From Flavobacteriales bacterium (lineage in GTDB: Bacteria > Bacteroidota > Bacteroidia > Flavobacteriales > UBA7312), in assembly GCA_016779995.1 (NCBI GenBank), contig JADHMO010000003.1, positions 102,733 through 166,732 of the forward strand: 64,000 nucleotides of DNA. Direction: 5' to 3'. Position 1 is the stretch's first letter, and each line of letters starts with the position of its first letter. The notes under the pieces were generated by a model. It was not told where the DNA came from. It did not search any database and saw only the letters and a program-made list of their open reading frames with translations. Position numbers and translations under genes: made by a program. Shown piece after piece: positions 1,417-44,831 of this stretch.

Positions 1417-2427
1417 ATGACAAAAATTAAAGTAGCAATTAATGGATTTGGAAGAATAGGAAGGAATTTTTTCCGTCAAGCTCTCGAATCTGATAATATA
1501 GAGGTCGTAGCAATTAACGACTTAACAGATGTAAAAACTTTAGCACATTTATTAAAGTATGACTCTACGCATGGCGTATTGACTAACAACGTTAGTCCTT
1601 CGGACAACAAGATTTTAGTTGATTCTACTGAAATACCAGTTTATTCATGCCCTAACCCTCAAGAATTACCTTGGAAAGCATTAGATGTTGATGTAGTATT
1701 AGAGTCTACAGGCCGTTTCTTAAATAACGAACAAGCTTTACAGCACGTAATAGCAGGAGCTAAAAAAGTTGTTATTTCAGCACCTTCACCTGACGCCAAA
1801 ACAGTCGTGTTGGGTGTAAATAATGAGGTGATTACTGATGAAGATTTTGTGTTTTCAAATGCTTCTTGTACAACCAATTGCTTAGCACCTATGGCAAAAG
1901 TTATCAACGATAACTTCGGTATTAAATCCGGTTATATAACGACTACACATGCTTTTACGGCAGACCAAAGTCTTCAAGATATGCCTCACAAAGATTTGAG
2001 AAGGGCACGTTCAGCAATGAATTCTATTATTCCTACAAAAACAGGTGCAGCATCTGCAGTTGGTAAAGTATTACCAAGTTTAAATGGTAAATTGGATGGC
2101 ATAGCTTTACGAGTGCCTGTGGCATGTGGTTCAATTACCGATTTCGTATGCATTACTGAAAAAGAAACAACTGCTGAAGAAGTCAATAACTTGTTACAAG
2201 CGGCATCCAACACATCAATGCAAGGAATCCTAGCCGTTAGCTCAGAACCTTTAGTTTCTATTGACATTGTTGGTAGAAAAGAATCATCAATTATTGATGC
2301 AGAATTAACTAAAGTTGATGGGAATTTGATTAAATTAGTTTCTTGGTACGATAACGAAACTGGATACTCAGCACGTCTAATAGATTTGTGTTCAATCGTT
2401 ACCGAAAAAGAACTAACAAAAATTTAA
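1417..2427 (+). CDS. gap: type I glyceraldehyde-3-phosphate dehydrogenase
   Basis: INGFGRIGR Rossmann N-terminus, active-site SNASCTTNCLAP, WYDNE C-terminal motif. Begins 1 nt after the pfkA stop. Confidence 0.95.
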   Translation: MTKIKVAINGFGRIGRNFFRQALESDNIEVVAINDLTDVKTLAHLLKYDSTHGVLTNNVSPSDNKILVDSTEIPVYSCPNPQELPWKALDVDVVLESTGRFLNNEQALQHVIAGAKKVVISAPSPDAKTVVLGVNNEVITDEDFVFSNASCTTNCLAPMAKVINDNFGIKSGYITTTHAFTADQSLQDMPHKDLRRARSAMNSIIPTKTGAASAVGKVLPSLNGKLDGIALRVPVACGSITDFVCITEKETTAEEVNNLLQAASNTSMQGILAVSSEPLVSIDIVGRKESSIIDAELTKVDGNLIKLVSWYDNETGYSARLIDLCSIVTEKELTKI

Positions 2428-2431
2428 TTCC

Positions 2432-2848
2432 ATGAGTAAAATAGCAGTAATAGCCCACGATAATTTCAAGCCAAATCTTTTAGAATTCCTTAAGGGGAAA
2501 AAATCATGGTTTTTTGGTAGAGAGATTGTTGCTACGGGAAGAACTGCTGAATTTTTAGAAGCTGGCGATTTACATTTGCCTCTTTTGCACGTCAATAAAG
2601 GGTCCGATGGCGGTTACCTTCAGATTACTGAAATGATAAAAAATGGTCAAGTAGGTATTGTGTTCTTTTTTAGAGATGCAACTATTGTTCAGCCTTATCA
2701 TGAAGACATTAGTAAACTGTTGAATACTTGCGATTTGGAAAATATCCCATTGAGCACTAATCAGGCTGGAGCAGAATTGTTAATTATCGGTAAAATAAGA
2801 ATGGAAGCTTCTGAAAAAGCACAATCTAAACTCAATTCAAATCAATGA
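2432..2848 (+). CDS. methylglyoxal synthase-like paralog (divergent, catalytic Asp position replaced)
   Basis: MGS fold motifs IAVIAHDNFK, ATGRTA and FFFRD. GSDGGY replaces SGPxGGD and PYHEDI replaces PHxPD (by-eye alignment to E. coli MgsA). Confidence 0.7.
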   Translation: MSKIAVIAHDNFKPNLLEFLKGKKSWFFGREIVATGRTAEFLEAGDLHLPLLHVNKGSDGGYLQITEMIKNGQVGIVFFFRDATIVQPYHEDISKLLNTCDLENIPLSTNQAGAELLIIGKIRMEASEKAQSKLNSNQ

Positions 2849-3210
2849 GGATAGCAATTATTGCACACGACGGCACCAAAGATCGCCTCAGGGGTTTTAT
2901 ACAATCCAAAATGGACGTGATTTCTAATCATACCATCGTTTGTACTAAAAGTACTTCTAAAATTGTCAAAGAATTTAATTTAAATGTTAGTGCAGTAGAA
3001 TCTGGGCCACTAGGAGGAGATGCACAAATAGCTGCACAAATAGTAACTAATGAAATAGAGGCTGTTCTCTTTTTGAGAGATCCATTAGGAAAGCACCCTC
3101 ACGAACCAGACATAAACATGTTGTTGAGATTGTGCGATGTGTACCAAGTCCCACTAGCAACCAATTTTAAAACAGCAGGGATTTTATTAAACCATTTTAA
3201 AAACCTTTAA
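2845..3210 (+). CDS. mgsA: methylglyoxal synthase
   Basis: IAIIAHDGTK, SGPLGGDAQI, LRDPL, HPHEPDINMLLRLC and VPLATN match MgsA catalytic and structural motifs. Start overlaps the upstream paralog stop (ATGA). Confidence 0.85.
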   Translation: MRIAIIAHDGTKDRLRGFIQSKMDVISNHTIVCTKSTSKIVKEFNLNVSAVESGPLGGDAQIAAQIVTNEIEAVLFLRDPLGKHPHEPDINMLLRLCDVYQVPLATNFKTAGILLNHFKNL

Positions 3211-3214
3211 TAAG

Positions 3215-4153
3215 ATGAAAGTAGTAGGAGTAGATATTGGTGGAACAAATACAGAATTAGCTGTCGTAGATTCTAAAGATGGAATTCTAAAAGTGAGTGC
3301 TTTCAAAACTAAAGCAAGTGATTCCTTTGCTCAGTATATTGATGATTTAAGTTGCCAAATTGAAGCATTAACATTGGAGTATTCTATAGATTCAATTGGG
3401 ATAGGTGCGCCTAACTTTGATTCTAAGGCACAAACGTTTTGTCCAGTTAATTTCCCTTGGGACGACTTAAAGCCGTTTAATTTAAAAGCACACTTAGAGA
3501 GTTTATTGAGTATTCCTACCTTTTTAATTAATGATGCCAATGCATCAGCTATGGCTGAAAATCGTTATGGTTCTGGTAAAAAATACAAAGATTTTTCTCT
3601 TATTACAGTAGGCACTGGATTAGGTGGTGGTATTATTATCAATAATCAACTTTTTGAAGGTGCTTTCGGATATGCTGGTGAATTCGGTCATACCAAAATA
3701 GAGGGTTTAGATAGACAATGTAATTGTGGTGGTGTAGGATGTTTAGAGACGGTTGTTTCTGCTAATGGCATCAAAAAGTCATATGCTGTTAATATGAAAG
3801 AAATAAAAAGCAGTGTTCCTACTCAAATTCCTTCGGTTAAAACCATTTTTGATAAAGCTAAAAATGGAGATAAAAGATGTCAGGCGATTTTAAATTTCAC
3901 ATTTGAAAAGCTAGGACAAAAAATGGCTGATTTTATACATGTCCTGAATCCAGAAGCTATTATTTTCTGTGGAAATATTGCCAAGTCTATGGAGAGTTAT
4001 TTGCCATTAATTTCTGGTTTTTGCGAGGAGCAATTACTTGATGACTTTAAAGGTAAAATACACTACGGAATCTCCGAATTACTTGATGACAAAATGAATG
4101 TTTTAGGACCAGCCTCATTAGCATTTACAAAAGCTGAAGAGTTAGTTAGCTAA
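3215..4153 (+). CDS. ROK family glucokinase / sugar kinase
   Basis: DIGGTN ATP-binding N-terminus, GTGLGGG, and the ROK zinc motif GHTKIEGLDRQCNCGGVGCLE. Confidence 0.8.
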   Translation: MKVVGVDIGGTNTELAVVDSKDGILKVSAFKTKASDSFAQYIDDLSCQIEALTLEYSIDSIGIGAPNFDSKAQTFCPVNFPWDDLKPFNLKAHLESLLSIPTFLINDANASAMAENRYGSGKKYKDFSLITVGTGLGGGIIINNQLFEGAFGYAGEFGHTKIEGLDRQCNCGGVGCLETVVSANGIKKSYAVNMKEIKSSVPTQIPSVKTIFDKAKNGDKRCQAILNFTFEKLGQKMADFIHVLNPEAIIFCGNIAKSMESYLPLISGFCEEQLLDDFKGKIHYGISELLDDKMNVLGPASLAFTKAEELVS

Positions 4154-4162
4154 AACCTTTAT

Positions 4163-4858
4163 TTATTGTTGGTTGAATTTGTAAAGCTCAGCAGGTTTGT
4201 GAGAAACACCTTTTTGCTTTTCGTTGGTTTTCTTTAATATTCCTTTACTTATAATCTGTTTTCTGAAGTTTCTTTTATCAAGCTTTTCATCCAAGATGAT
4301 TTCGTATAGTTCTTGCAGTTGCGATAAAGTGAACTTTCTGGGTAGTAATTCTGAAGTTACCTCATGATTTATTTCTGTTCTCAAGAACTGAATAGCATCA
4401 TCAACAATTAAGTTATGGTCAAATGCCATTTCTGGAATATTTTCTATATCTGTCCAACATACATCGTGGGCAAAATAAGAGGCTTGAGGATTATAGTCTT
4501 CCATTCTAACAATAGAAACGTATCCAACTGTAATTACTCTTTCGTTAGGGTCGGATCTAAAATTTACTAACCACTCTTTATCTTTTTCTTCTTGTACACG
4601 TGTTGGGTTACCAAAGGTTTTGAATTGCTTAAGATATAAGTTGTCTAATTTTGTTAAGCTAAAAAGAATTCTATTGGCAGCATCGTCAATGTCTTCGTCA
4701 AGTTCAATGAGATCACCAGGAATAGCAAATTGAGTTTTCTTATGGTCTTGCTTTGAAAATGGATTTACCTTTTTTTCAATAGTTAAAACTTTTAGTTTTT
4801 TTTCAGTATCATTAAAACCGAAAATTACACAATCGACAGAAACATTAATCTTAGACAT
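4163..4858 (-). CDS. Nudix-related transcriptional regulator (NrtR-like: degenerate Nudix domain plus C-terminal winged-helix-like domain)
   Basis: The N-terminal half has a Nudix-fold pattern, but the Nudix box is degenerate (PGDLIELDEDIDDAANRILFSLTKL lacks RExxEE). The C-terminal about 70 aa (FTLSQLQELYEIILDEKLDKRNFRKQI) resembles the NrtR DNA-binding domain. Confidence 0.55.
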   Translation of the reverse strand: MSKINVSVDCVIFGFNDTEKKLKVLTIEKKVNPFSKQDHKKTQFAIPGDLIELDEDIDDAANRILFSLTKLDNLYLKQFKTFGNPTRVQEEKDKEWLVNFRSDPNERVITVGYVSIVRMEDYNPQASYFAHDVCWTDIENIPEMAFDHNLIVDDAIQFLRTEINHEVTSELLPRKFTLSQLQELYEIILDEKLDKRNFRKQIISKGILKKTNEKQKGVSHKPAELYKFNQQ

Positions 4859-4957
4859 ATTATTTTTAGTATTTAGCCAAATATATTAAATAATTAACAT
4901 AAAAAAAGGCTTTAAATGTCAAAATTACACTTTGAATATATAAAAACTAATAAAAAG

Positions 4958-5332
4958 TTAATTATTGACTTTATAATGAATAAATAGATTAGCCCAAATA
5001 ATTTTTGATAGATGGAATAAAAAAGGAGTACCAACAATCAAAACTGTGCCTACAAATAAAAGTATTTGAAATAAAGATGCTTGTAAATCAAGAATCCAGT
5101 TAGCTATATAAGTTGCAATGAAAATTGCTATGCCTATAGCGTATGAAACGTACATTGCCCCAAAATAAAAACCAGGCTCTTTGCTGAATTTTAATTTACA
5201 ATTGGGACAGTGTTTATGCAGTTCACCAATTTTTTTAAAGTTATATGCTGAAGAGATAAAGAAGTCACCTTCATGGCATTGAGGGCATTTAAATTTAAGA
5301 ATGCTAAATAATTTTGTTCCTTTTTTTATCAT
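4958..5332 (-). CDS. DUF983 family small membrane protein (zinc-ribbon plus 2 TM)
   Basis: CPQCHEGDFF...HCPNCKLKF followed by two hydrophobic helices. This is the typical DUF983 layout. Confidence 0.6.
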   Translation of the reverse strand: MIKKGTKLFSILKFKCPQCHEGDFFISSAYNFKKIGELHKHCPNCKLKFSKEPGFYFGAMYVSYAIGIAIFIATYIANWILDLQASLFQILLFVGTVLIVGTPFLFHLSKIIWANLFIHYKVNN

Positions 5333-6415
5333 TTAGGAAAGGTAAAAAACTAAGCCTAAAAAGCTAATGTAAAACCCAATTATAATTATTGATCGGTAAA
5401 AATTTATTCCTTTCAACCAATAAATTAGAGTAATAGGGATAGAGAATGCGATTAAAAATATAGACGATAAGAAAACAATGTTGTTGTTATTGCTTGTTGT
5501 AGTTGTTGATATGACATCTATACCGTTGACCAATAGATATACAAGAACGGGTAGTCCTATACCTATACAGATATCAAATATATTACTGCCATATGCATTC
5601 GAAAAAGAATCTTTATACTTTTCGTTTTGAGCATCTTTGATAGATAATATTGTATCTGGGATACTTGAGGCTACGGCAGCAATAAAAAAGGTAATGAAAA
5701 ATAAATTCAAATTCAGTTGCTCCGATAGGTGTTCACTACTAGTTACAAGTTCTTTACAAGCTAAGGAGATAATTACCAAAGAAATAAGTAAGATTAAACT
5801 AGCCTTCCAAGTGTTCAATTTAGATTTGTTTAATATTAATCCTGCAATATTAATATTGATTATCTTATAATAAAATCCAGTTTCTTGAATGTAATCTTCT
5901 TTGTTGTTTTGTGATGTACTGCCTTTATTTGTTACGCTTTTATCATTTCTTTTTTGAAAAACTAAAACAATATAAATACAATAAAGAACAATGAGAATTG
6001 TAGCAAGGTAAATAGATATACCGCCAAAGTATAGCCCTGCTAACAAGGCAATTTCTGTGATGATTAAGAAAAAGCCATCTTGTTCTATAATTTTTTTGTC
6101 AGTAGGGAACAAGGGAATGCCCTTCTTGTAATATATCACTAAGAATGATACGGCTGGTATTATTGTGATATTAAATATAGAGCTTCCAATAATGGTGGCA
6201 TAACCTGCTGAAAAACCCTCAAGGTCACCAATGTAAAAAAGAAAGAAAAAAGAAATGAGTAGCTCGGGTAAAGAACTCGCTATTGCATTTATAGTTGGTC
6301 CTTTTATTCCTTCGTTGAGATTACGAGTGAGGTAGGAAGAAGCAATGTCAAAGGATTCACTTGCTTTCCAAATTAAGTAAGTGGAGAGGCATATTAAACT
6401 TAATGATAATATCAT
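5333..6415 (-). CDS. sodium/calcium exchanger (CaCA family) membrane protein
   Basis: About 10 TM segments with two alpha-repeat motifs, GSSIFNITIIP and GSNIFDICIGIGLP, separated by a hydrophilic loop. Confidence 0.75.
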   Translation of the reverse strand: MILSLSLICLSTYLIWKASESFDIASSYLTRNLNEGIKGPTINAIASSLPELLISFFFLFYIGDLEGFSAGYATIIGSSIFNITIIPAVSFLVIYYKKGIPLFPTDKKIIEQDGFFLIITEIALLAGLYFGGISIYLATILIVLYCIYIVLVFQKRNDKSVTNKGSTSQNNKEDYIQETGFYYKIININIAGLILNKSKLNTWKASLILLISLVIISLACKELVTSSEHLSEQLNLNLFFITFFIAAVASSIPDTILSIKDAQNEKYKDSFSNAYGSNIFDICIGIGLPVLVYLLVNGIDVISTTTTSNNNNIVFLSSIFLIAFSIPITLIYWLKGINFYRSIIIIGFYISFLGLVFYLS

Positions 6416-6510
6416 TTTGCAAAACTATATAAATAAACGCACTTCTTTAATCTATTTTTATTTATCATATGTACTTGATAAGGCTAAATTATGTTGACCA
6501 AATGTTGACC

Positions 6511-6550
6511 AAAAAAAAAAGACCTAAAATCTACTAGATAAGAGGTCTTT
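6511..6550 (-). terminator. rho-independent terminator after tRNA-Phe
   Basis: Minus strand reads AAAGACCT-loop-AGGTCTTT followed by T10 (plus-strand A10 at 6511-6520). Confidence 0.6.
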
Positions 6551-6554
6551 ATTT

Positions 6555-6630
6555 TGGTGGTGCTACCAGGATTCGAACCGGGGACACAAGGATTTTCAGT
6601 CCTTTGCTCTACCAACTGAGCTATAGCACC
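6555..6630 (-). tRNA. tRNA-Phe (anticodon GAA), CCA encoded
   Basis: The reverse complement folds by hand into a cloverleaf: acceptor GGTGCTA/TAGCACC, D arm GCTC-AGTTGGTA-GAGC, anticodon arm AAGGA-CTGAAAA-TCCTT, T loop TTCGAAT, then ACCA. There is one C-U mismatch in the T stem. Confidence 0.93.
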
Positions 6631-6698
6631 TAAATAGGTGTGCAAATGTAAAAAAAATTCTATTGTAACAAATTATTTTCTCATGCTTTTGCTTTTAT

Positions 6699-6706
6699 TA
6701 ACTTTG
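6699..6706 (+). promoter_or_regulatory. candidate -7 box (TAACTTTG) for coaX
   Basis: Exact TAnnTTTG match ending 13 nt before the coaX ATG. No convincing -33 TTG at the expected spacing. Confidence 0.3.
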
Positions 6707-6719
6707 GAGCGTTTTTATT

Positions 6720-7433
6720 ATGAAAAAAATAACACTAGACGAAGGTAATACATTAGTTAAACTAGCTTTATTTGAGAATAATCAAATGGTGTTTAGGGAA
6801 AGTGATGTTAATTTGAAGCGTGTTGAGGAGTTGCTTTCACAATGCGATAGACTAATAGTTTCTACGGTCAAGAAAAACACACTTTTTGAGCCGCTATTAT
6901 CAAGTAAGTATGCTATTTCTTTAAATTCTTCCACACCTTTGCCTATTACGAATTGTTACGAGACGCCTCATAGTTTAGGTAACGATAGAATTGCATTAGC
7001 TGTGGGAGCAATGGCGAATTTCCCTAACAATAATGTGTTAGTTATCGATGCGGGTACTTGTATAACCTATGATTTTATTAACTCTAAAAAAGAGTATTTA
7101 GGGGGTAGTATTTCACCAGGGATACAGATGAGATATAATGCATTGCATCAATTTACAAGCCAATTACCTTTGTTGGAAAGTGTAGATGCAGCTAAACTTA
7201 CAGGAGCTAATACTGAGGAGTCTATTCATTCTGGAATAATAAATGGTGTCCTTGTTGAAATAGATGGAATAATTCAACGTTATACAAATCAATATCCTGA
7301 TTTAAAAGTAATAGTTACTGGTGGCAACGCTAAATTCTTTGATAAGGGATTAAAAAACACCATATTTGCAAACCCAAATCTATTGATGGAAGGGTTAAAT
7401 AAAATTTTAGATTATAATGAATCATATTTTTAG
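6720..7433 (+). CDS. coaX: type III pantothenate kinase
   Basis: LDEGNT N-terminus, GNDRIALAVGA, VIDAGTCITYD, GGSISPG. Size about 240 aa. Confidence 0.85.
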   Translation: MKKITLDEGNTLVKLALFENNQMVFRESDVNLKRVEELLSQCDRLIVSTVKKNTLFEPLLSSKYAISLNSSTPLPITNCYETPHSLGNDRIALAVGAMANFPNNNVLVIDAGTCITYDFINSKKEYLGGSISPGIQMRYNALHQFTSQLPLLESVDAAKLTGANTEESIHSGIINGVLVEIDGIIQRYTNQYPDLKVIVTGGNAKFFDKGLKNTIFANPNLLMEGLNKILDYNESYF

Positions 7434-8664
7434 CATTTTAGCTTTTGTGCTTATGGGCTTGTCATTATCAGCACAAAATGAATCAAACTCTCCCTATTCT
7501 CGTTTTGGTCTTGGCGACTTGCAAAGTTTTTCTACGGCCACTCAGTCAGCAATGGGTGGAGTTGGCATAGCTAGTTATGACCCCTTATCCATCAATATTA
7601 GCAATCCAGCTTCTTATTCTTCAGTTTTTGCTCAGCGTTTTACTATGCAAACAGGAGGAATTCATACTACAAAACTTCTACAAACTAACACTCAAAATCA
7701 AGTTGTTAATTCTACAAATTTCAATTACTTGATGTTTTCTTTTCCCTTATCAAAGTTTTGGGGAACAAGTGTAGGGCTATTACCTTTTTCTGAGAAGTCT
7801 TATTCATTTTCTGACGTTAGCACAAACCCTCCTGCAGATCTTTTATTTGAAGGTAATGGTGGGCTTACACGTATTTATTTTGGTAATTCTATTAACGTCA
7901 ATAAGAACTTGTCTATTGGAGCAAATCTTAATTATCTGTTTGGTAATTTAAATTCTAGTAGAAAAGTTTTATTTAATGATGTAAGCGTTTTTAACACAAA
8001 GATTAATGAAGATGTCAATATCAATGGCTTCTATTTTGATTTTGGTTTAATGTACAAAGCCAAATTAGGAAAATGGAATTCAGTATTGGGTTTTACTATG
8101 GATAATGGAAGTGAAATTTCTGCTGAGAAAACATCATTAATTGAAACGTTTAGAAGTGGAGGTGAGTTTGAGTTGATAGAAGACACAATAAGTTTCGACC
8201 AGCAACTTGACGGCTCTTTAGAGTTACCAACTTCTATGGGTTTTGGTTTAGCTTTGAGCAATGAGCAATGGAAAATAATGGCTGATTACAAAAGCGATAA
8301 TTGGGAAGAATATAATTTATTTGGTGTCAATGATGATTTGGAAAATAGCAGTCGATTGGCTTTAGGTTTTGAATTTGTGCCTGATAAAAAATCCATTAAC
8401 AGATACTATAAGATGATTCGTTATCGTTTAGGTATGTATAGTTCTAAAACTTATTTGAATTTGAAAAATCAGCAATTGGATGAAAAAGCCATCACATTAG
8501 GATTTGGTTTACCTCTGAAAAGAAGTGGTTCTTTAGTTAATTTGTCAGCAGAGTTTGGACAAATGGGAACAACTGATGATGGCTTAATTCAAGAGTCATT
8601 TGCTAGGTTCAAAATAGGTTTTATTTTTAGCGACATTTGGTTTATTAAAAGAAAATACGATTAA
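7417..8664 (+). CDS. outer-membrane beta-barrel protein (conserved Bacteroidota, FadL/OmpP1-like), function unknown
   Basis: Signal peptide ending SAQ, conserved SPYSRFGLGDL N-terminal motif, alternating beta-strand pattern and aromatic C-terminal residues. Confidence 0.45.
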   Translation: MNHIFSILAFVLMGLSLSAQNESNSPYSRFGLGDLQSFSTATQSAMGGVGIASYDPLSINISNPASYSSVFAQRFTMQTGGIHTTKLLQTNTQNQVVNSTNFNYLMFSFPLSKFWGTSVGLLPFSEKSYSFSDVSTNPPADLLFEGNGGLTRIYFGNSINVNKNLSIGANLNYLFGNLNSSRKVLFNDVSVFNTKINEDVNINGFYFDFGLMYKAKLGKWNSVLGFTMDNGSEISAEKTSLIETFRSGGEFELIEDTISFDQQLDGSLELPTSMGFGLALSNEQWKIMADYKSDNWEEYNLFGVNDDLENSSRLALGFEFVPDKKSINRYYKMIRYRLGMYSSKTYLNLKNQQLDEKAITLGFGLPLKRSGSLVNLSAEFGQMGTTDDGLIQESFARFKIGFIFSDIWFIKRKYD

Positions 8665-8667
8665 ATT

Positions 8668-9972
8668 ATGAAAAAGTTACTGTTTTTATTCTCAGCGTTT
8701 TTATCAATTACGCTTAGTGCTAACTCTTTGGTCGGTAGCAAGTTTGGAAGTGATAGTGTAAAGTGTGTTACAAACATATCGCTATACCGCGAGTATGTCA
8801 AACAAAATAATTATGATGATGCTATGACTCCTTGGAGAAAAGCCTATACACTTTGTCCAAAAGCGTCTAAAAATATTTACATAGATGGAGCCAAGCTTTA
8901 CAATCATCTTATTAGCAAAAATCAAGGTTCTGAAGAACTTCAAAAAGCATATTTAGATTCCTTAGAAGCTTTGTACGATAATAGGATTGCTAATTTTGGT
9001 AAAGAAGACTATGTTTTAGGATTGAAAGGTTCTGATATGATGAAGTATTCTTTTTCTGATTTAGACCGAGCATTTACCTATTTAAAGCAATCTGTGGAAG
9101 GGCAAGAAGCTAAATCTAAAGCCACTGCTCTTTTTTCATACTTCAAAGCTGCTACCGAAAAATATAAAGCTAAAAGCTTTGATAAAGCACAAGTACTAGA
9201 AGTTTATGCTGTTGTGGCAGATTACCTTGATATCAATATTGCTAAAGATTCAAAAAGTAAAAAGTTTTATGTCAAAGCGGCTGAAAATGTAGAAAAATTA
9301 TTCGTACCGTTCGCTACCTGTGATGACCTCATAGCTATGTTTGATGCCAAATATCAAGAAACACCTGACGACATAAATTTACTGAAGCGTATTGTTAAAG
9401 TTCTTGACAAAAAAGATTGTACCGATGCAGAAGTATATTTCTCAGCGGCAAAACAATTACATGAAGTAGAGCCTTCAGCACTTTCAGCATACAATATGGG
9501 TAACCTTTCTATCAAGAAAAATAAATCTTCCGATGCGATTGCTTTTTTCAAACAAGCTTTAGAGCTTTCTGATTCTAATGATGATAAAGCCAATTGTTTT
9601 TATGGTTTGTCGGCAGCCTATTTCAAGTCGGGTAACAACTCCACAGCTAGAAATTATGCGTTAAAAGCACTAGAGATAAGTCCTAAATGGGGCAAGTCTA
9701 TGCTATTGATTGGTGATATTTATGCTGCTTCTGCCAATGAATGTGGAAGCAACGCCTTTGAGTCTGCTATGCTATATTCAGCCGCTATTGACAAATTCAT
9801 TGCTGCTAAAAATATGGATAGTTCAGTTGCTGAATTAGCCAATAAGAAAATTGCCTCCTATTCAAAGTATCTACCCTCTAATGAAGATGCTTTCTTTAAT
9901 GGTTATAAAGAAGGCGATACATATACGGTTGGTTGTTGGATAAACGAATCGACTAAAGTTAGAATTAAATAA
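8668..9972 (+). CDS. secreted TPR-like repeat protein, function unknown
   Basis: Signal peptide, helical repeat content, and TPR-like stretches (AIAFFKQALELSDSNDDKANCFYGLSAAYFKSGNNSTARNYALKALEISP). Confidence 0.55.
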   Translation: MKKLLFLFSAFLSITLSANSLVGSKFGSDSVKCVTNISLYREYVKQNNYDDAMTPWRKAYTLCPKASKNIYIDGAKLYNHLISKNQGSEELQKAYLDSLEALYDNRIANFGKEDYVLGLKGSDMMKYSFSDLDRAFTYLKQSVEGQEAKSKATALFSYFKAATEKYKAKSFDKAQVLEVYAVVADYLDINIAKDSKSKKFYVKAAENVEKLFVPFATCDDLIAMFDAKYQETPDDINLLKRIVKVLDKKDCTDAEVYFSAAKQLHEVEPSALSAYNMGNLSIKKNKSSDAIAFFKQALELSDSNDDKANCFYGLSAAYFKSGNNSTARNYALKALEISPKWGKSMLLIGDIYAASANECGSNAFESAMLYSAAIDKFIAAKNMDSSVAELANKKIASYSKYLPSNEDAFFNGYKEGDTYTVGCWINESTKVRIK

Positions 9973-9978
9973 TTTCTC

Positions 9979-10548
9979 ATAGTACCGCTATCACATACTC
10001 CATTTAGAAATTCGCTATTTGTCTTTTTATTTTTTACAATAGCTTCTTGTTCTAATGACTTGGAAAAAATTCATGAAATTTCCATTCAGAATCAAGCTTC
10101 TTTTCCAATAGAAACTATCAAAGATTGTGAAATCATTTATAGCGATTCAGCTAAAGTAAGAGTATTGTTAAATGCTACTCTTATGAATCGATATGCTGAT
10201 GAAAAAACATACGTTGAATTTAAAAACGGTTTAAAGGTTCAGTTTTTTGATGTCAATGGTAAAAAAGAGTCTGAGTTAATTGCTGACTATGCCATAGTTG
10301 ATGATGAAAATGATTTGATGTTAGCCGAAAGTAACGTGGTAGTTCGTAATATTAAAGGTGATATTTTGGAGACAGAAAAGCTGAATTGGAATCAACAAAA
10401 AGAAGAAATATTTACAGATGAATTTGTCAAAATTACTACAGAAAATGAAGTTATTTTTGGTGAAGGATTAGTGTCTAACCAAAATTTTTCTAAGTATACT
10501 ATTCGTAAAATAAAAGGTACTATAACTATAAATCAGCCCGATGAATAG
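9979..10548 (+). CDS. lptC: LPS export periplasmic lipoprotein LptC; start uncertain, no canonical start codon upstream of the lipobox
   Basis: The mature part resembles flavobacterial LptC (IYSDSAKVRVLLNATLMNRY..., NFSKYTIRKIKGTI). A lipoprotein signal RNSLFVFLFFTIASC is encoded at 10006-10050. Its frame opens right after TAA 9970-9972 and contains only ATA (9979) as a near-cognate start. Confidence 0.65.
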   Translation: MVPLSHTPFRNSLFVFLFFTIASCSNDLEKIHEISIQNQASFPIETIKDCEIIYSDSAKVRVLLNATLMNRYADEKTYVEFKNGLKVQFFDVNGKKESELIADYAIVDDENDLMLAESNVVVRNIKGDILETEKLNWNQQKEEIFTDEFVKITTENEVIFGEGLVSNQNFSKYTIRKIKGTITINQPDE

Positions 10549-11788
10549 TTGGATAATCATATTAGCTTCAGTACTTCTGTCGGCCTTTTTTTCAGGTATG
10601 GAGATAGCATATTTATCGTCCAATAAATTGAAACTTGAGCTGGACAAACAATCCAATTCCATTGTAGCGCCTTTGTTGCAAAGAATTTTACGTTCCCCAT
10701 CGAAATATATTGCTACTATGCTAGTAGGCAATAACATCTCTTTAGTAGTTTATGGTATAACTATGGCAGTAGTATTAGAGCCCAAAATACAAGTATATAC
10801 TCAGTCTTCGTTTCTAGTATTATTGATTCAAACATTAATTTCAACTTTAATTATTCTTGTTACTGCTGAGTTTCTTCCTAAAGCCTTTTTTAGATTAAAT
10901 CCCAATCGATTTTTGAAAATATTAGTGTTGCCTTTAACCCTCTTTCATTATCTGTTAGCACCAATAGTTAGTATAACACTATTTTTATCAAAAAGAGGTC
11001 TTAAGCTATTTGGCTTGGTGCTAGTCGAAGATTCCCCTGTGTTTGGTAAGATAGATTTAGAAGAATACCTTAAGCTTCATACCAATGAGTCTGAATACAA
11101 AAATTTAGATGTTGAGGTTCAGATTTTACAAAATGCCCTTGATTTCTCAAACGTAAAAGTGCGTGAGTGTATGTTACCACGTACAGAAATTATTGGTATT
11201 GAGGTATCTAAGACTATTGAAGATTTGTTGAAGATTTTTATTGACACTAAACTTTCAAAAGTGCTCATCTACAAAGAAAATATTGATAACATCATTGGTT
11301 ATGCACATTCTAACGAAATGTTCAAATCACCTAAAAACATAAAGTCCATACTAATTCCTATTTCTTATGTTCCTGAAAGTATGATGGCCAATGATATGCT
11401 GGAGTTATTTATCAAAGAGCGTAAAGGAATTGCAGTTGTGGTTGACGAATTTGGAGGTACATCTGGAATGATAACTATTGAAGATGTTGTTGAAGAAATT
11501 TTAGGCGAGATAGAAGACGAACACGATAGTGAAAAAGATTTAGAGATAAAGATTGATGAAAAGACGTATCGTTTTTCTGCTCGACTGGAGATAGATTATT
11601 TGAATGAAAAGTACCATTTCGATTTGCCAAAATCTGATGAATACGAAACATTAGGTGGTTTACTGATTAGTCAATTGGAAGAAATACCAGAGAAAAATAC
11701 AGAAATCAACATTGGAGATTATACTCTAGTTGTAGATGAAGTGTCAGATACCAAAATTGAGGTCGTTAGCCTTAGTAAAACAGATTAA
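10541..11788 (+). CDS. CNNM/DUF21-CBS-CorC_HlyC family transporter (hemolysin-like)
   Basis: N-terminal 4-TM DUF21 (FFSGMEIAYLS), CBS pair, and C-terminal CorC_HlyC domain. Start overlaps the lptC stop (ATGAATAG). Confidence 0.8.
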   Translation: MNSWIIILASVLLSAFFSGMEIAYLSSNKLKLELDKQSNSIVAPLLQRILRSPSKYIATMLVGNNISLVVYGITMAVVLEPKIQVYTQSSFLVLLIQTLISTLIILVTAEFLPKAFFRLNPNRFLKILVLPLTLFHYLLAPIVSITLFLSKRGLKLFGLVLVEDSPVFGKIDLEEYLKLHTNESEYKNLDVEVQILQNALDFSNVKVRECMLPRTEIIGIEVSKTIEDLLKIFIDTKLSKVLIYKENIDNIIGYAHSNEMFKSPKNIKSILIPISYVPESMMANDMLELFIKERKGIAVVVDEFGGTSGMITIEDVVEEILGEIEDEHDSEKDLEIKIDEKTYRFSARLEIDYLNEKYHFDLPKSDEYETLGGLLISQLEEIPEKNTEINIGDYTLVVDEVSDTKIEVVSLSKTD

Positions 11789-38591: not shown

Positions 38592-39104
38592 CTATTTGTC
38601 AGTTTTCTTAGCTGCGGTTTTTTTAGCAGCTGGTTTTTTAGCTGTAGTTTTTTTAGCAGCGGCTTTTGGCTTAGCAGCACTTGCTGTTTTGGCCTTAGGA
38701 GCTGCTTTTTTGGCTGGAGCTTTTTCTGCTGCTGCTTTTGGTTCAGCTTCTTTCTTTGCTGAAGTAGCAGTAGCTTTTTTAGCTGTAGCACCTTTTTCTA
38801 CAATACTTTGGATTTCAATTTGAGTGAAAGCTTGGCGATGACCATTTTTTACTCTGTATCCTTTTCTTCTTTTCTTTTTGAAGACAACGACTTTGTCTCC
38901 TTTCATGTGGTCAAGCACTTTTGCAGTTACTTTTGCACCACTGATAGCTGGGGCGCCAACATTAACTTTGCCATTGTTGTCAATCAATAATACATTATCG
39001 AATTCAACTTTAGCACCTTCTTTTTCCTCTAGTCGATGAACGAAGATTTGTTGGTCTTTTTCAACTTTGAATTGTTGCCCTGCTATTTCTACAATTGCGT
39101 ACAT
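38592..39104 (-). CDS. rplU: 50S ribosomal protein L21 with ~65-aa Lys/Ala-rich C-terminal extension
   Basis: [14 protein letters not shown]...[23 protein letters not shown] is the canonical L21 core (about 103 aa). It is followed by [62 protein letters not shown]. Confidence 0.9.
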
Positions 39105-41533: not shown

Positions 41534-42724
41534 TTACATTCCTTTCAGTTGATTTTCTAAGAATTTTATTCGTTTATCCATTTCAAAAATGTGAAGGTAA
41601 AGTTCTTCAATTTTTTCTAGATTAATTTCGGTAGCTCGATTGACAATAATTCCTCCTTGATTTTTGATGTCTTGCCTCGATGGAACGCCTGGTAAATGAT
41701 GGTTTTCCTTGACGAATTTTTCAACTTTTTCAAGGGCTTTAAATTGATAGTTTGGATTGAATTCACTATTGCCTTCATAAAAATGTTCAAATACATAATC
41801 TGGTGTTATAGTGCCCGTGGCTAATATATTGCCATTTACGTGAAGTTTTTCTGTTGGATTGTTATTTCCAATACCTATATTACCTCCATTTTTTATTATC
41901 AATCTCGGAGAGAAGTTTTCACTGTAGCCAAATAGTTTTAAATTTCCAATCCTCATCGGATTTCCACCATCGTCGTATTCTGTACAAAATAATCGATAGT
42001 ATCTGTAAGCATTTGTATTAGGGATATTAGTTTCATAATTATATGAGTAAGTCATTTCTGATTTACTATCTAAAGTAGTCCAATTCGAATTATCGTTTGA
42101 GCCTTGAAACTCCCAACTTATTGGTCCTCTAGTAAGATTTGAGGAAAAAATTGCAGGTGTTTCAATTCTGTATTTATTCACGATATTATTAGAAGTGCCA
42201 AAATCATATGTGCACCATTGCGGTAAATTACTTGAACCGTTATTGATAGATGCAGCCCATAGTGTTGTTGCGTTATTATCAATTAAGTTATTAGCACAAC
42301 ACCCTATAGAAACAGTAGGGTTTATAGAACTTGTAAATTCTGCTGAATTTGACGGGTTTCCTACTGCAAATTCTAAGTTATTGTCTTCTTGATAGTTAAT
42401 AAATACGCTGCCAAATTCAGTTAAATTAATCCTTTGAATATTATTAGTCATAACTCTTAAATCTTCATTATTAGTAGTTCCTAATGTGTTAGTGCTATTA
42501 GTATTATTATTGCTATATGTTGTCCAAAAAGTATTCCATTTTGTTCCATCGTAGTAATACATATTATTTTGAACAAAAGCTAAACTGCCAGTAGCAGGTG
42601 ATGTAATATTATTTAAATCGTTTAAATTAGAAATATTATGTATTCTTATAAGTTGGTCGGCAGTTTGGGCATTAACAGATAAACTAATGCTTAGTATCAA
42701 TATTAGTAGATAAATTTTTTTCAT
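41534..42724 (-). CDS. secreted tail-fibre-like surface protein with discoidin (F5/8 type C)-like central domain and C-terminal coiled coil
   Basis: Signal peptide MKKIYLLILILSISLSVNAQ. N-terminal SPATGSLAFVQNNMYYYDGTKW motif. Central region LWAAS...PQWCTYDFG...YRIET...WEFQGSNDNSNWTTLD...YRYYRLF resembles galactose-binding-like domains. NIGIGNNNPTEKLHVNGNILATG and PDYVFE...LPGVPS...KIEELYLHIFEMDKRIKFLENQL resemble Bacteroidota tail-fibre-domain proteins. Confidence 0.7.
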   Translation of the reverse strand: MKKIYLLILILSISLSVNAQTADQLIRIHNISNLNDLNNITSPATGSLAFVQNNMYYYDGTKWNTFWTTYSNNNTNSTNTLGTTNNEDLRVMTNNIQRINLTEFGSVFINYQEDNNLEFAVGNPSNSAEFTSSINPTVSIGCCANNLIDNNATTLWAASINNGSSNLPQWCTYDFGTSNNIVNKYRIETPAIFSSNLTRGPISWEFQGSNDNSNWTTLDSKSEMTYSYNYETNIPNTNAYRYYRLFCTEYDDGGNPMRIGNLKLFGYSENFSPRLIIKNGGNIGIGNNNPTEKLHVNGNILATGTITPDYVFEHFYEGNSEFNPNYQFKALEKVEKFVKENHHLPGVPSRQDIKNQGGIIVNRATEINLEKIEELYLHIFEMDKRIKFLENQLKGM

Positions 42725-42733
42725 AGCACATTC

Positions 42734-42833
42734 GAGATGAGATGAGATGAGATGAGATGAGATGAGATGAGATGAGATGAGATGAGATGAGATGAGATGA
42801 GATGAGATGAGATGAGATGAGATGAGATGAGAT
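42734..42833. repeat. perfect pentanucleotide microsatellite (GATGA)n, 100 nt = 20 unit lengths
   Basis: Counted directly: GA, then 19 x GATGA (42736-42830), then GAT. Flanked on both sides by CATAGC (42722-42727 and 42834-42839). Confidence 0.97.
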
Positions 42834-42868
42834 CATAGCTTTAAATAAAATAAGGTTTGTAAAGTTAC

Positions 42869-42900
42869 AAAAAAAGCCCCCATTTTGGGAGCTTTATTTA
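42869..42900 (-). terminator. rho-independent terminator after groEL
   Basis: Minus strand reads AAAGCTCCC-AAAAT-GGGGGCTTT followed by T7. Confidence 0.65.
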
Positions 42901-42921
42901 TAAATAGTTAGAAATTTCCTT

Positions 42922-44831
<1,910 letters not shown>

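Follow-up and report, generated by a model that had tools for sequence, protein, structure and literature searches.

The stretch of DNA analysed here, 64,000 nt from the metagenome-assembled genome (MAG) of a Flavobacteriales bacterium (GenBank assembly GCA_016779995.1, contig JADHMO010000003.1, positions 102,733 to 166,732 of the forward strand), is called the window below, and its first letter is position 1. On its minus strand, directly downstream of groEL, lies a gene for a secreted fibre protein, and the leader of this gene harbors a perfect pentanucleotide repeat placed between two ATG codons. The tract is read here as a hypermutable simple sequence repeat (SSR) in a transcribed leader, where it would form an expression switch together with an upstream open reading frame (ORF), or uORF; from sequence comparison, a probability of roughly 0.55 is given to this reading. 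Probably, the locus is one instance of a family-wide contingency system in marine Flavobacteriales, for which the effect on expression and the reversibility are predicted.

The fibre gene and its leader

The features of the locus are as follows.

41534..42724, minus strand: gene of the secreted fibre protein, 396 aa (ORF list, Pfam, profile searches)
42684..42836, minus strand: uORF of 50 codons in the 20-unit state (MISSHL...RMCYEKNLSTNIDTKH), which shares the first 41 nt of the main ORF (ORF list)
42715..42724, minus strand: main ATG with an A7 run behind it (ATGAAAAAAA; the closest relatives have A6) and a start context at the 54th percentile of the window genes
42729..42731, minus strand: a third ATG, in the uORF frame and 7 nt 5′ of the main ATG, which is an in-frame start if the A-run is A6, as in the relatives L115 and L117
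42734..42833, minus strand: perfect pentanucleotide repeat (ATCTC)x20 (AUCUC in the mRNA, GAGAT/GATGA on the plus strand), free of G on the mRNA strand (Tandem Repeats Finder)
42834..42836, minus strand: upstream ATG (uATG), start of the uORF, about 19 nt from the putative transcription start site (TSS)
42851..42867, minus strand: promoter-like element TAACTTTA-caaa-CCTTA, that is, an octamer resembling a -7 box, 4 nt and a CCTTA block (motif conservation)
42868..42895, minus strand: intrinsic terminator of groEL, with a 10-bp stem at 42895-42873 and a T-run to about 42868 (terminator scan)
42922..44550, minus strand: groEL, the upstream neighbour (ORF list)

Tandem Repeats Finder reports the array with period 5, 20.0 copies, 100% matches and a score of 200, and the runner-up in the 64 kb, a 15/30-nt repeat within the coding sequence of rplU, scores 93. 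The first-pass annotation, which was made from the letters of the window alone, had described an uninterrupted 20-unit tract as the only long microsatellite, lying between two ATGs in the same hexamer and free of stops in every minus-strand frame; the present analysis agrees with it in each of these points. The minus strand reads ...aaagctATG (42836-42834), (ATCTC)x20, GAATGTGCT, ATG (42724-42722) and AAAAAAATT. The array begins directly after the uATG and ends 9 nt before the main ATG, and GCTATG is the context of both. All minus-strand frames across it are cyclic ISSHL with zero stops, and the plus strand reads ATG AGA TGA. In RNA folding the array is fully unpaired, and the leader has a minimum free energy of -8.1 kcal/mol (z = +0.9). 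A duplication of the start region around the array had also been suggested from the twofold GCTATG. The hexamer does occur twice, but it is not common to the sister loci L034, L041 and L050, and this suggestion was set aside.

The T-run of the groEL terminator ends within one nucleotide of the end given earlier (about 42869), and the 36 nt between the terminator and gctATG are A/T-rich (minus strand, window 42400-43100). A search of the locus with Rfam returned only Phe_leader, below threshold and on the terminator, which was judged to be a chance match. The order of genes is SecG-GroES-GroEL-fibre gene-CtaA-HMA-EamA-L21-L27, and it is found likewise in the relatives L115, L034 and L118. The rplU gene of this cluster (38592-39104, minus strand), encoding ribosomal protein L21, has an Ala/Lys-rich C-terminal tail of about 70 residues, for which the imperfect 15/30-nt repeats at 38602-38739 code.

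The ORF behind the 20-unit array is intact. Its product matches NCBI MBL6663186.1 ([quoted passage not shown]) with 100% identity and begins at the main ATG with a canonical signal peptide (MKKIYLLILILSISLSVNA|QT). Residues 144-255 form an F5/8-type-C or NedA-like galactose-binding (CBM32/discoidin) domain according to Pfam, and similarity to a PHROG “tail protein” extends across the same domain. The C-terminal helical region of about 120 aa is highly conserved; precomputed Pfam assignments on homologues name it PF26696 (PTL_trimer), and the label is taken from these homologues, the local Pfam copy being without this model. A family profile (A1, 20 members) matches PDB 8OND (Bd2133, E 2e-15) and 8OJN (Bd3182, E 1.4e-7), in addition to CBM32 modules. 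The AlphaFold2 monomer is poor, with a mean predicted local distance difference test score (pLDDT) of 61, and its confident core matches CBM32 galactose-binding modules in Foldseek. NCBIfam gave zero matches for the protein.

The mosaic adhesive trimers (MATs) of Bdellovibrio are trimeric adhesins that are exposed at the cell surface, resemble phage tail fibres and have tips that can be swapped (PMC10769870). The window protein resembles them, and phage tail fibres, in the beta-helix repeats shared with Bd2133 and Bd3182, in a swappable ligand-binding domain (here CBM32) and in the signal peptide. Unlike the MATs, it has about 400 aa instead of about 1000 and carries a helical PTL_trimer C-terminus without S74 chaperone or beta-sandwich tip; repeat-based regulation is not reported for MATs. 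With its MAT beta-helix similarity and the PF26696 C-terminal domain, it belongs to the MAT-like/PTL_trimer fibre proteins. The product is a secreted, Bdellovibrio-MAT-like trimeric fibre or lectin whose surface location and trimeric state are predicted, in keeping with the secreted, tail-fibre-like protein proposed in the first pass.

Tract length in relatives and across the fibre family

The closest relatives of the window locus, L033, L115 (on a 311-kb JGI contig), L116 and L117, have full SecG-to-L27 synteny and 95.7-96% nucleotide identity over the fibre gene. In all four both ATGs are kept, but only three units (ttctc atctc atctc) are found between them, versus 20 in the window. The 3-unit allele of L033 is in frame (MFSSHLECAMKK...). 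A more distant groEL-linked orthologue, with 54% identity, is present in 13 contigs: ten of them have gttATGt(ACTCA)2ACT-ATG and two have (ACTCA)3.

The count of 20 units is that of a MAG consensus, and the 20-unit allele is absent from the other assemblies covered by exact-protein look-ups, a metagenome DNA scan and a search of 5.8 billion proteins. Looking up the exact fibre protein, GroEL and uORF sequences gave zero matches, the metagenome DNA scan for the junction of repeat and flank (ATCTCGAATGTGCTATGAAAAA) gave 0 matches, and a single-protein scan of a contig collection returned distant domain-level matches only and no orthologue. That the assembler mis-resolved a short tandem repeat would agree with the MAG origin and with the lack of a second 20-unit assembly. 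Such an artefact is highly improbable: independent assemblies of paralogous loci (L050/L131) hold up to 10 perfect and 3 imperfect units, the relatives carry the ATCTC unit at the same site, and graph assemblers usually collapse tandem repeats and do not expand them.

The layout of an ATG, a short non-triplet repeat and a start codon is not confined to the window. Among 79 loci from the metagenome scan with family alignment, plus the contigs reached by exact-protein look-ups, it was found at five distinct loci:

Window-type locus: ATCTC
groEL-linked orthologue: ACTCA
L041: ACTCA, as (ACTCA)3
Mrp/MGMT-linked three-gene operon: ACTCT
L138: TCTTCCG

The particular arrangement of uATG, 5-nt repeat and ATGAAA recurs in the 54%-identity groEL orthologue, in L041 and in the Mrp/MGMT-linked operon, and an ATG directly 5′ of the repeat is kept at four diverged loci (L033/L115, L034, L041 and L050). 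Three or four further family first genes lack a repeat.

The ACTCT locus gives the clearest view of tract length. L127, L129, L130 and L131 encode an identical 267-aa protein with 0/900 flank mismatches, and the distance from uATG to ATG is 43 nt in L127, 43 nt with another internal arrangement in L129, 28 nt in L130 and 68 nt in L131; in L056 it is 58 nt. At a sister locus, leaders of 17 and 22 nt stand between flanks with 3/800 mismatches. Since lengths differ where flanks do not, the tracts must change much faster than point substitutions accumulate. Together with the 20 versus 3 units at about 96% identity, tract length is polymorphic at this class of loci while the flanks are conserved, and the window array itself is long, pure and of a unit length not divisible by 3, as in an SSR contingency locus. 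The earlier proposal of a contingency-type non-triplet repeat at the 5′ end of a surface-protein gene is strengthened by this variation across the family.

Family three-gene operons are frequent (L127-L133 at 1501-3804; L135 at 3502-6865 and 7578-11239; L138 at 3653-6991). Their members are PTL_trimer proteins of about 260-540 aa with differing middle domains, and the repeat, where present, is on the first gene only, so that a switch there could control the whole operon.

The groEL-linked fibre gene has three independent nonsense alleles in natural populations (Q20*, S128* and E378*). L033 has CAA changed to TAA at codon 20 (567-569), L115-117 have a stop at codon 128, and 12 contigs of the 54%-identity orthologue, including L118-L126, have GAA changed to TAA at codon 378, in the invariant EKIEEL motif. 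This pattern suggests recurrent selection for loss of function of the fibre gene, as would fit a gene under fluctuating selection. In L034, a tandem duplication of about 19 nt (atgatgtaa tatgatgtgt atgatgtaa) lies right after the groEL stop (4205-4230); L036/L037 are without this duplication.

The same decay could be told differently, namely that a slippage-prone proto-repeat drifted to 20 copies without regulatory consequence: close relatives have three units and nonsense mutations, so the locus tolerates decay, and the allele phases described below look unconstrained. We regard this as quite unlikely. Over the 681 kb of loci that were fetched, together with the window, the repeats keep to the 5′ ends of first genes of the family, and of the 10 pentamer repeats with three or more perfect copies, 8 directly precede the start of a family gene. 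A repeat, in differing units, comes back at 5 out of about 8-10 distinct loci, 100% purity over 100 nt argues for ongoing turnover and not for an old relic, and the ORF behind the 20-unit array has stayed open.

Putative promoter, start codons and repeat phase

A composite motif, TAnnTTnn-N3-5-CCTT[AG], is found upstream of 8/8 distinct first genes of the close family and in 0/71 other upstream regions; within the window the pattern occurs 4 times, where 1.6 would be expected. Before the fibre gene it reads TAACTTTAcaaaCCTTA (42867-42851, minus strand), and at every locus the motif lies wholly 5′ of the repeat. In its longer form, TAnnTTnn-N3-5-CCTT[AG]AAA, it is conserved upstream of all close-subfamily first genes, i.e., those of the window, L034, L041, L050, L061, L135 (two sites) and L138. 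In Flavobacterium johnsoniae, the -7 box (Bacteroidetes consensus TAnnTTTG) is located 4-5 nt upstream of the TSS (PMC6847099). The invariant CCTTA block may mark where transcription starts, or may serve a shared regulator as operator; on the strength of the motif, the TSS is likely to be the CCTTA block itself, about 19 nt 5′ of the uATG and always upstream of the array. With a conserved promoter-like element upstream, the array is probably transcribed, as the first-pass annotation had supposed when it placed the promoter beyond the repeat. Promoter elements straddling the array were considered and rejected, because a spacing of 100 nt is incompatible with them and the conserved motif is wholly upstream. 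A scan for sigma-70 promoters was uninformative (12 found, 9.5 expected), sigma-70 being the wrong promoter type for this phylum.

The consequence of unit number was followed by rebuilding the leader in silico with 0-24 units and scoring the uORF frame against the main ORF. At 19 units, a 36-codon uORF ends with a TGA that overlaps the main ATG; at 20 units, the present state, the 50-codon uORF ends 41 nt inside the gene, in agreement with the ORF list; at 21 units the uORF is fused in frame and the main ORF gains 39 residues. The cycle holds throughout the range: TGA/ATG overlap at n=3k+1, an end 41 nt inside the gene at n=3k+2 and fusion at n=3k. The three frame outcomes predicted in the first pass are thus recovered, and in the simulation unit number alters the frame relations at the 5′ end of the gene.

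That repeat phase can select a start is best seen in the heptamer paralogue L138. At 3643-3711, the ORF itself contains ATGaaaaactATG(TCTTCCG)7; the repeat follows two ATGs that are 10 nt apart and out of frame, and it codes for part of the signal peptide (MSSVFRLPSSVFRLPSSVFLVLISF...). In simulation, n=0 mod 3 gives the full ORF from ATG#1, n=1 mod 3 gives it from ATG#2, and n=2 mod 3 gives no ORF. Four unit numbers are represented among natural L138-type alleles, and each uses the start predicted from n mod 3:

n=1: P0138, from ATG#2
n=3: P0140 (MKNYVFRLP...), from ATG#1
n=4: P0023 (MSSVFRLP...), from ATG#2
n=7: P0024/P0139, from ATG#2

At the level of sequence, the fibre family therefore demonstrably uses repeat phase for the choice of reading frame, as judged by this paralogue. 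P0023 is MBL6662919.1 (ISP71_02340), an accession number 267 away from that of the window protein, and very probably it comes from the same MAG as the window; if so, the window genome has at least two repeat-headed fibre loci.

From L138 it might be argued that the window gene works in the same way as an Opa-like intragenic switch, with the uATG as the sole real start, protein produced solely at multiples of 3 (18, 21 and so on), the 20-unit allele OFF and the annotated ATG an internal methionine. The distance from uATG to the promoter motif is close to that of the true start in the repeat-less L044 and of ATG#1 in L138, and the 3-unit L033 allele is in frame. Nevertheless, this is very unlikely. 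At each of the four pentamer loci, a complete signal peptide (MKK, hydrophobic core and VNA|Q) starts precisely with the downstream ATG; in L138, which is without a downstream ATG, the repeat is used to build the signal peptide. With 21 units, 39 extra residues would stand in front of the signal peptide. Furthermore, in-frame alleles are the rarest among distinct alleles (1/10; with the three phases equally frequent, P(<=1 in 10) would be about 0.10).

Under the switch with an uORF, which we prefer, a plausible three-state mechanism can be drawn from the sequence. Transcription would start from the CCTTA block, roughly 19 nt 5′ of the uAUG, and give an mRNA with a short A/U-rich leader, the uAUG and (AUCUC)n. 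Bacteroidia ribosomes ignore Shine-Dalgarno (SD) sequences and pick accessible AUGs in unstructured RNA, as published work describes, and with such SD-blind start choice both the uAUG and the main AUG would likely be used. In F. johnsoniae, non-start AUGs are depleted around start sites, and start choice may need little beyond an accessible AUG (PMC6847099). This depletion implies that accessible AUGs get used, so that translation from the uAUG is plausible. Replication slippage, as the comparison of relatives and sister loci shows, shifts n in steps of 5 nt and re-phases the uORF against the main ORF. With n=3k+1 (19, 22), the uORF stop and the main start would form AUGA, allowing coupling or re-initiation (ON). 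With n=3k+2, as in the present 20 units, the 41-nt overlap of the uORF would occlude the main start (low or OFF), and with n=3k (18, 21) an (ISSHL)n extension would be placed before the signal peptide.

The A7 run behind the main ATG and the extra ATG 7 nt 5′ of it may add a further layer. The run is a second slippery element, 3′ of the array (window 42715-42731, minus strand). In L115 (2440-2470) and L117 it is A6, and there the ORF is in frame with the ATG 7 nt upstream (MCYEKIYLL... compared with MKKIYLL...). Two starts in two frames combined with a homopolymer would leave two thirds of the A-run phases productive.

Several points weigh against the proposed switch. Only two alleles of the window locus are known, with 20 and 3 units, from lineages about 4% diverged, and the MAG origin leaves the count of 20 unconfirmed. 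A search for (ISSHL)n or N-terminally extended alleles among 5.8 billion proteins returned only a 128-aa fragment from L115. One of the (ACTCA)3 contigs of the 54%-identity orthologue, L123, has lost the uATG (ATG to ATA). The distinct alleles sort by phase as one in mod 0, six in mod 1 and three in mod 2, without a common preferred state, and the position of the TSS is inferred from a motif. The main ATG stands 3′ of the array with a normal start context. In a start-context position weight matrix from 48 window genes, which is too weak to settle whether the uATG is used, the main ATG ranks at the 54th percentile and the uATG at the 4th. In their upstream halves both contexts have similar scores, and the gap comes almost wholly from the A-rich codons 2-3 of the main ORF. 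Because of this position and context, translation of the main ORF may be independent of phase. Accordingly, the claim of an SSR-driven ON/OFF/altered switch survives in part: the length-polymorphic class, the uATG conserved at four loci and the frame-dependent paralogue speak for it, while its strict three-state form is weakened by the normal main-ATG context, the loss of the uATG in L123 and the two alleles.

A rival reading is one in which frame does not matter. The length of an unstructured C/U/A-rich repeat in the 5′ untranslated region would act as a rheostat, via bS1 or another RNA-binding protein or via mRNA stability; the effect would be graded and the uATG irrelevant. The array is G-free and fully unpaired, the main ATG has the good context and the uATG the poor one, L123 does without the uATG, and the ACTCT-locus leaders of 28, 43 and 58 nt are spaced by 15 nt and hence keep one phase. 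Precedents are the (AGAT)6-23 tract of Moraxella catarrhalis uspA2, with an optimum of 18 copies, and the TAACTGA repeats, for which binding of S1, Csp or Csr has been proposed (PMC4679880). It is hard to reconcile with such a rheostat that the ATG before the repeat is kept at four diverged loci despite changed leader sequence around it, that family units are non-triplet only (5 and 7 nt), and that the heptamer paralogue is unambiguously frame-dependent; we consider it unlikely, though likelier than the other alternatives.

Comparison with known repeat switches

Slipped-strand contingency loci are already known as a general kind; what would be new here is the uAUG-repeat-AUG variant and the unexpected ecological setting. 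Repeat-driven phase variation is textbook knowledge for Neisseria, Haemophilus, Campylobacter and Moraxella, and Bacteroidota are known for invertible promoters. In Neisseria opa genes, (CTCTT)n pentamers lie in the region coding for the signal peptide, unit number sets the frame, and copy number is polymorphic. In Haemophilus influenzae lic1 and lic2A, a tetranucleotide repeat lies behind multiple ATGs in different frames.

The window locus is like opa in its pyrimidine-rich 5-nt unit at the extreme 5′ end and in belonging to a predicted surface-protein family with several paralogues per genome; the setting of frame by unit number and a polymorphic copy number (PMC13183285) are likewise shared. 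Unlike the opa repeat, which is inside the ORF, the window repeat lies between the uATG and a second ATG with its own complete signal peptide, so that phase alters the relation of uORF and main ORF instead of breaking the ORF. Moreover, opa belongs to host-restricted pathogens, the window to a free-living marine member of the Flavobacteriales. The window array is thus not an Opa-type intragenic pentamer switch: the signal peptide starts 3′ of the repeat, and the uATG is out of frame at 20 units. With lic it shares several starts in different frames combined with a non-triplet repeat, which would give more than two expression states. The lic design is matched by the paralogue L138/P0023, with its two ATGs 10 nt apart and then (TCTTCCG)n; it is not found at the window, which has one ATG upstream of the repeat and the close pair (42729-42731 and 42722-42724) downstream of it.

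Moraxella catarrhalis uspA2, a gene for a trimeric adhesin, carries (AGAT)n in 6-23 copies between promoter and start, and copy number affects expression, as summarized in PMC4679880, which cites Attia and Hansen (2006). As at the window, where the TSS is putative, a long non-triplet leader repeat precedes the gene of a trimeric surface adhesin, a predicted one in the case of the window; the differences are the graded effect, the other phylum and unit, and that no uORF logic is described in that summary. TAACTGA heptamers just upstream of start codons, in up to 43 copies, occur in Beggiatoaceae, Cyanobacteria and five Bacteroidetes, and a translational role has been proposed for them (PMC4679880). 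They are like the present arrays in being short tandem repeats within a few nt of starts, with hosts that include the marine Flavobacteriia Gramella forsetii and Aequorivita. They are unlike them in unit (ATCTC, ACTCA, ACTCT and TCTTCCG here) and in standing before many unrelated genes, with no upstream ATG or frame logic described and no population polymorphism shown.

A literature search on repeat-based phase variation in Flavobacteriia or Bacteroidetes gave nothing relevant, and no description of the geometry of uAUG, repeat and main AUG was found in the literature. The view that an SSR switch would be unusual for the phylum accordingly holds as far as repeat switching in Flavobacteriia is concerned, and has to be tempered by the heptamer leader repeats in five Bacteroidetes (PMC4679880).

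On a wider view, we tentatively propose a multi-locus “phasome” in uncultured free-living marine Flavobacteriales, in which MAT-like fibre-lectin operons would each be headed by a hypermutable 5- or 7-nt repeat and the uAUG-repeat-AUG layout would be a three-state switch operated by uORF re-phasing; this is possible, but somewhat doubtful. If it is true, repeat-based bet-hedging, thought to be typical of host-adapted pathogens, extends to ocean bacterioplankton, where it would probably be directed against phage or grazers that recognise the fibres. Copy-number variation against identical flanks, together with the recurrent nonsense alleles, suggests that a cell-surface structure is under strong, fluctuating selection in the ocean. 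Furthermore, the uAUG-repeat-AUG layout could serve as a natural experiment on AUG choice by SD-blind Bacteroidia ribosomes. MAG consensus sequences hide repeat heterogeneity, and gene callers annotate such genes as constitutively ON.

A further pentamer was seen in L018, a Chitinophagaceae MAG: (GAAAT)3 at 3396-3410 overlaps the first codons of an ORF whose product would have a lipoprotein-like signal peptide (MKYKILFSVLVAC...), and each unit brings in an ATG, which may be chance. Probably, the F5/8-type-C gene that was matched about 600 nt further downstream begins with this ORF.

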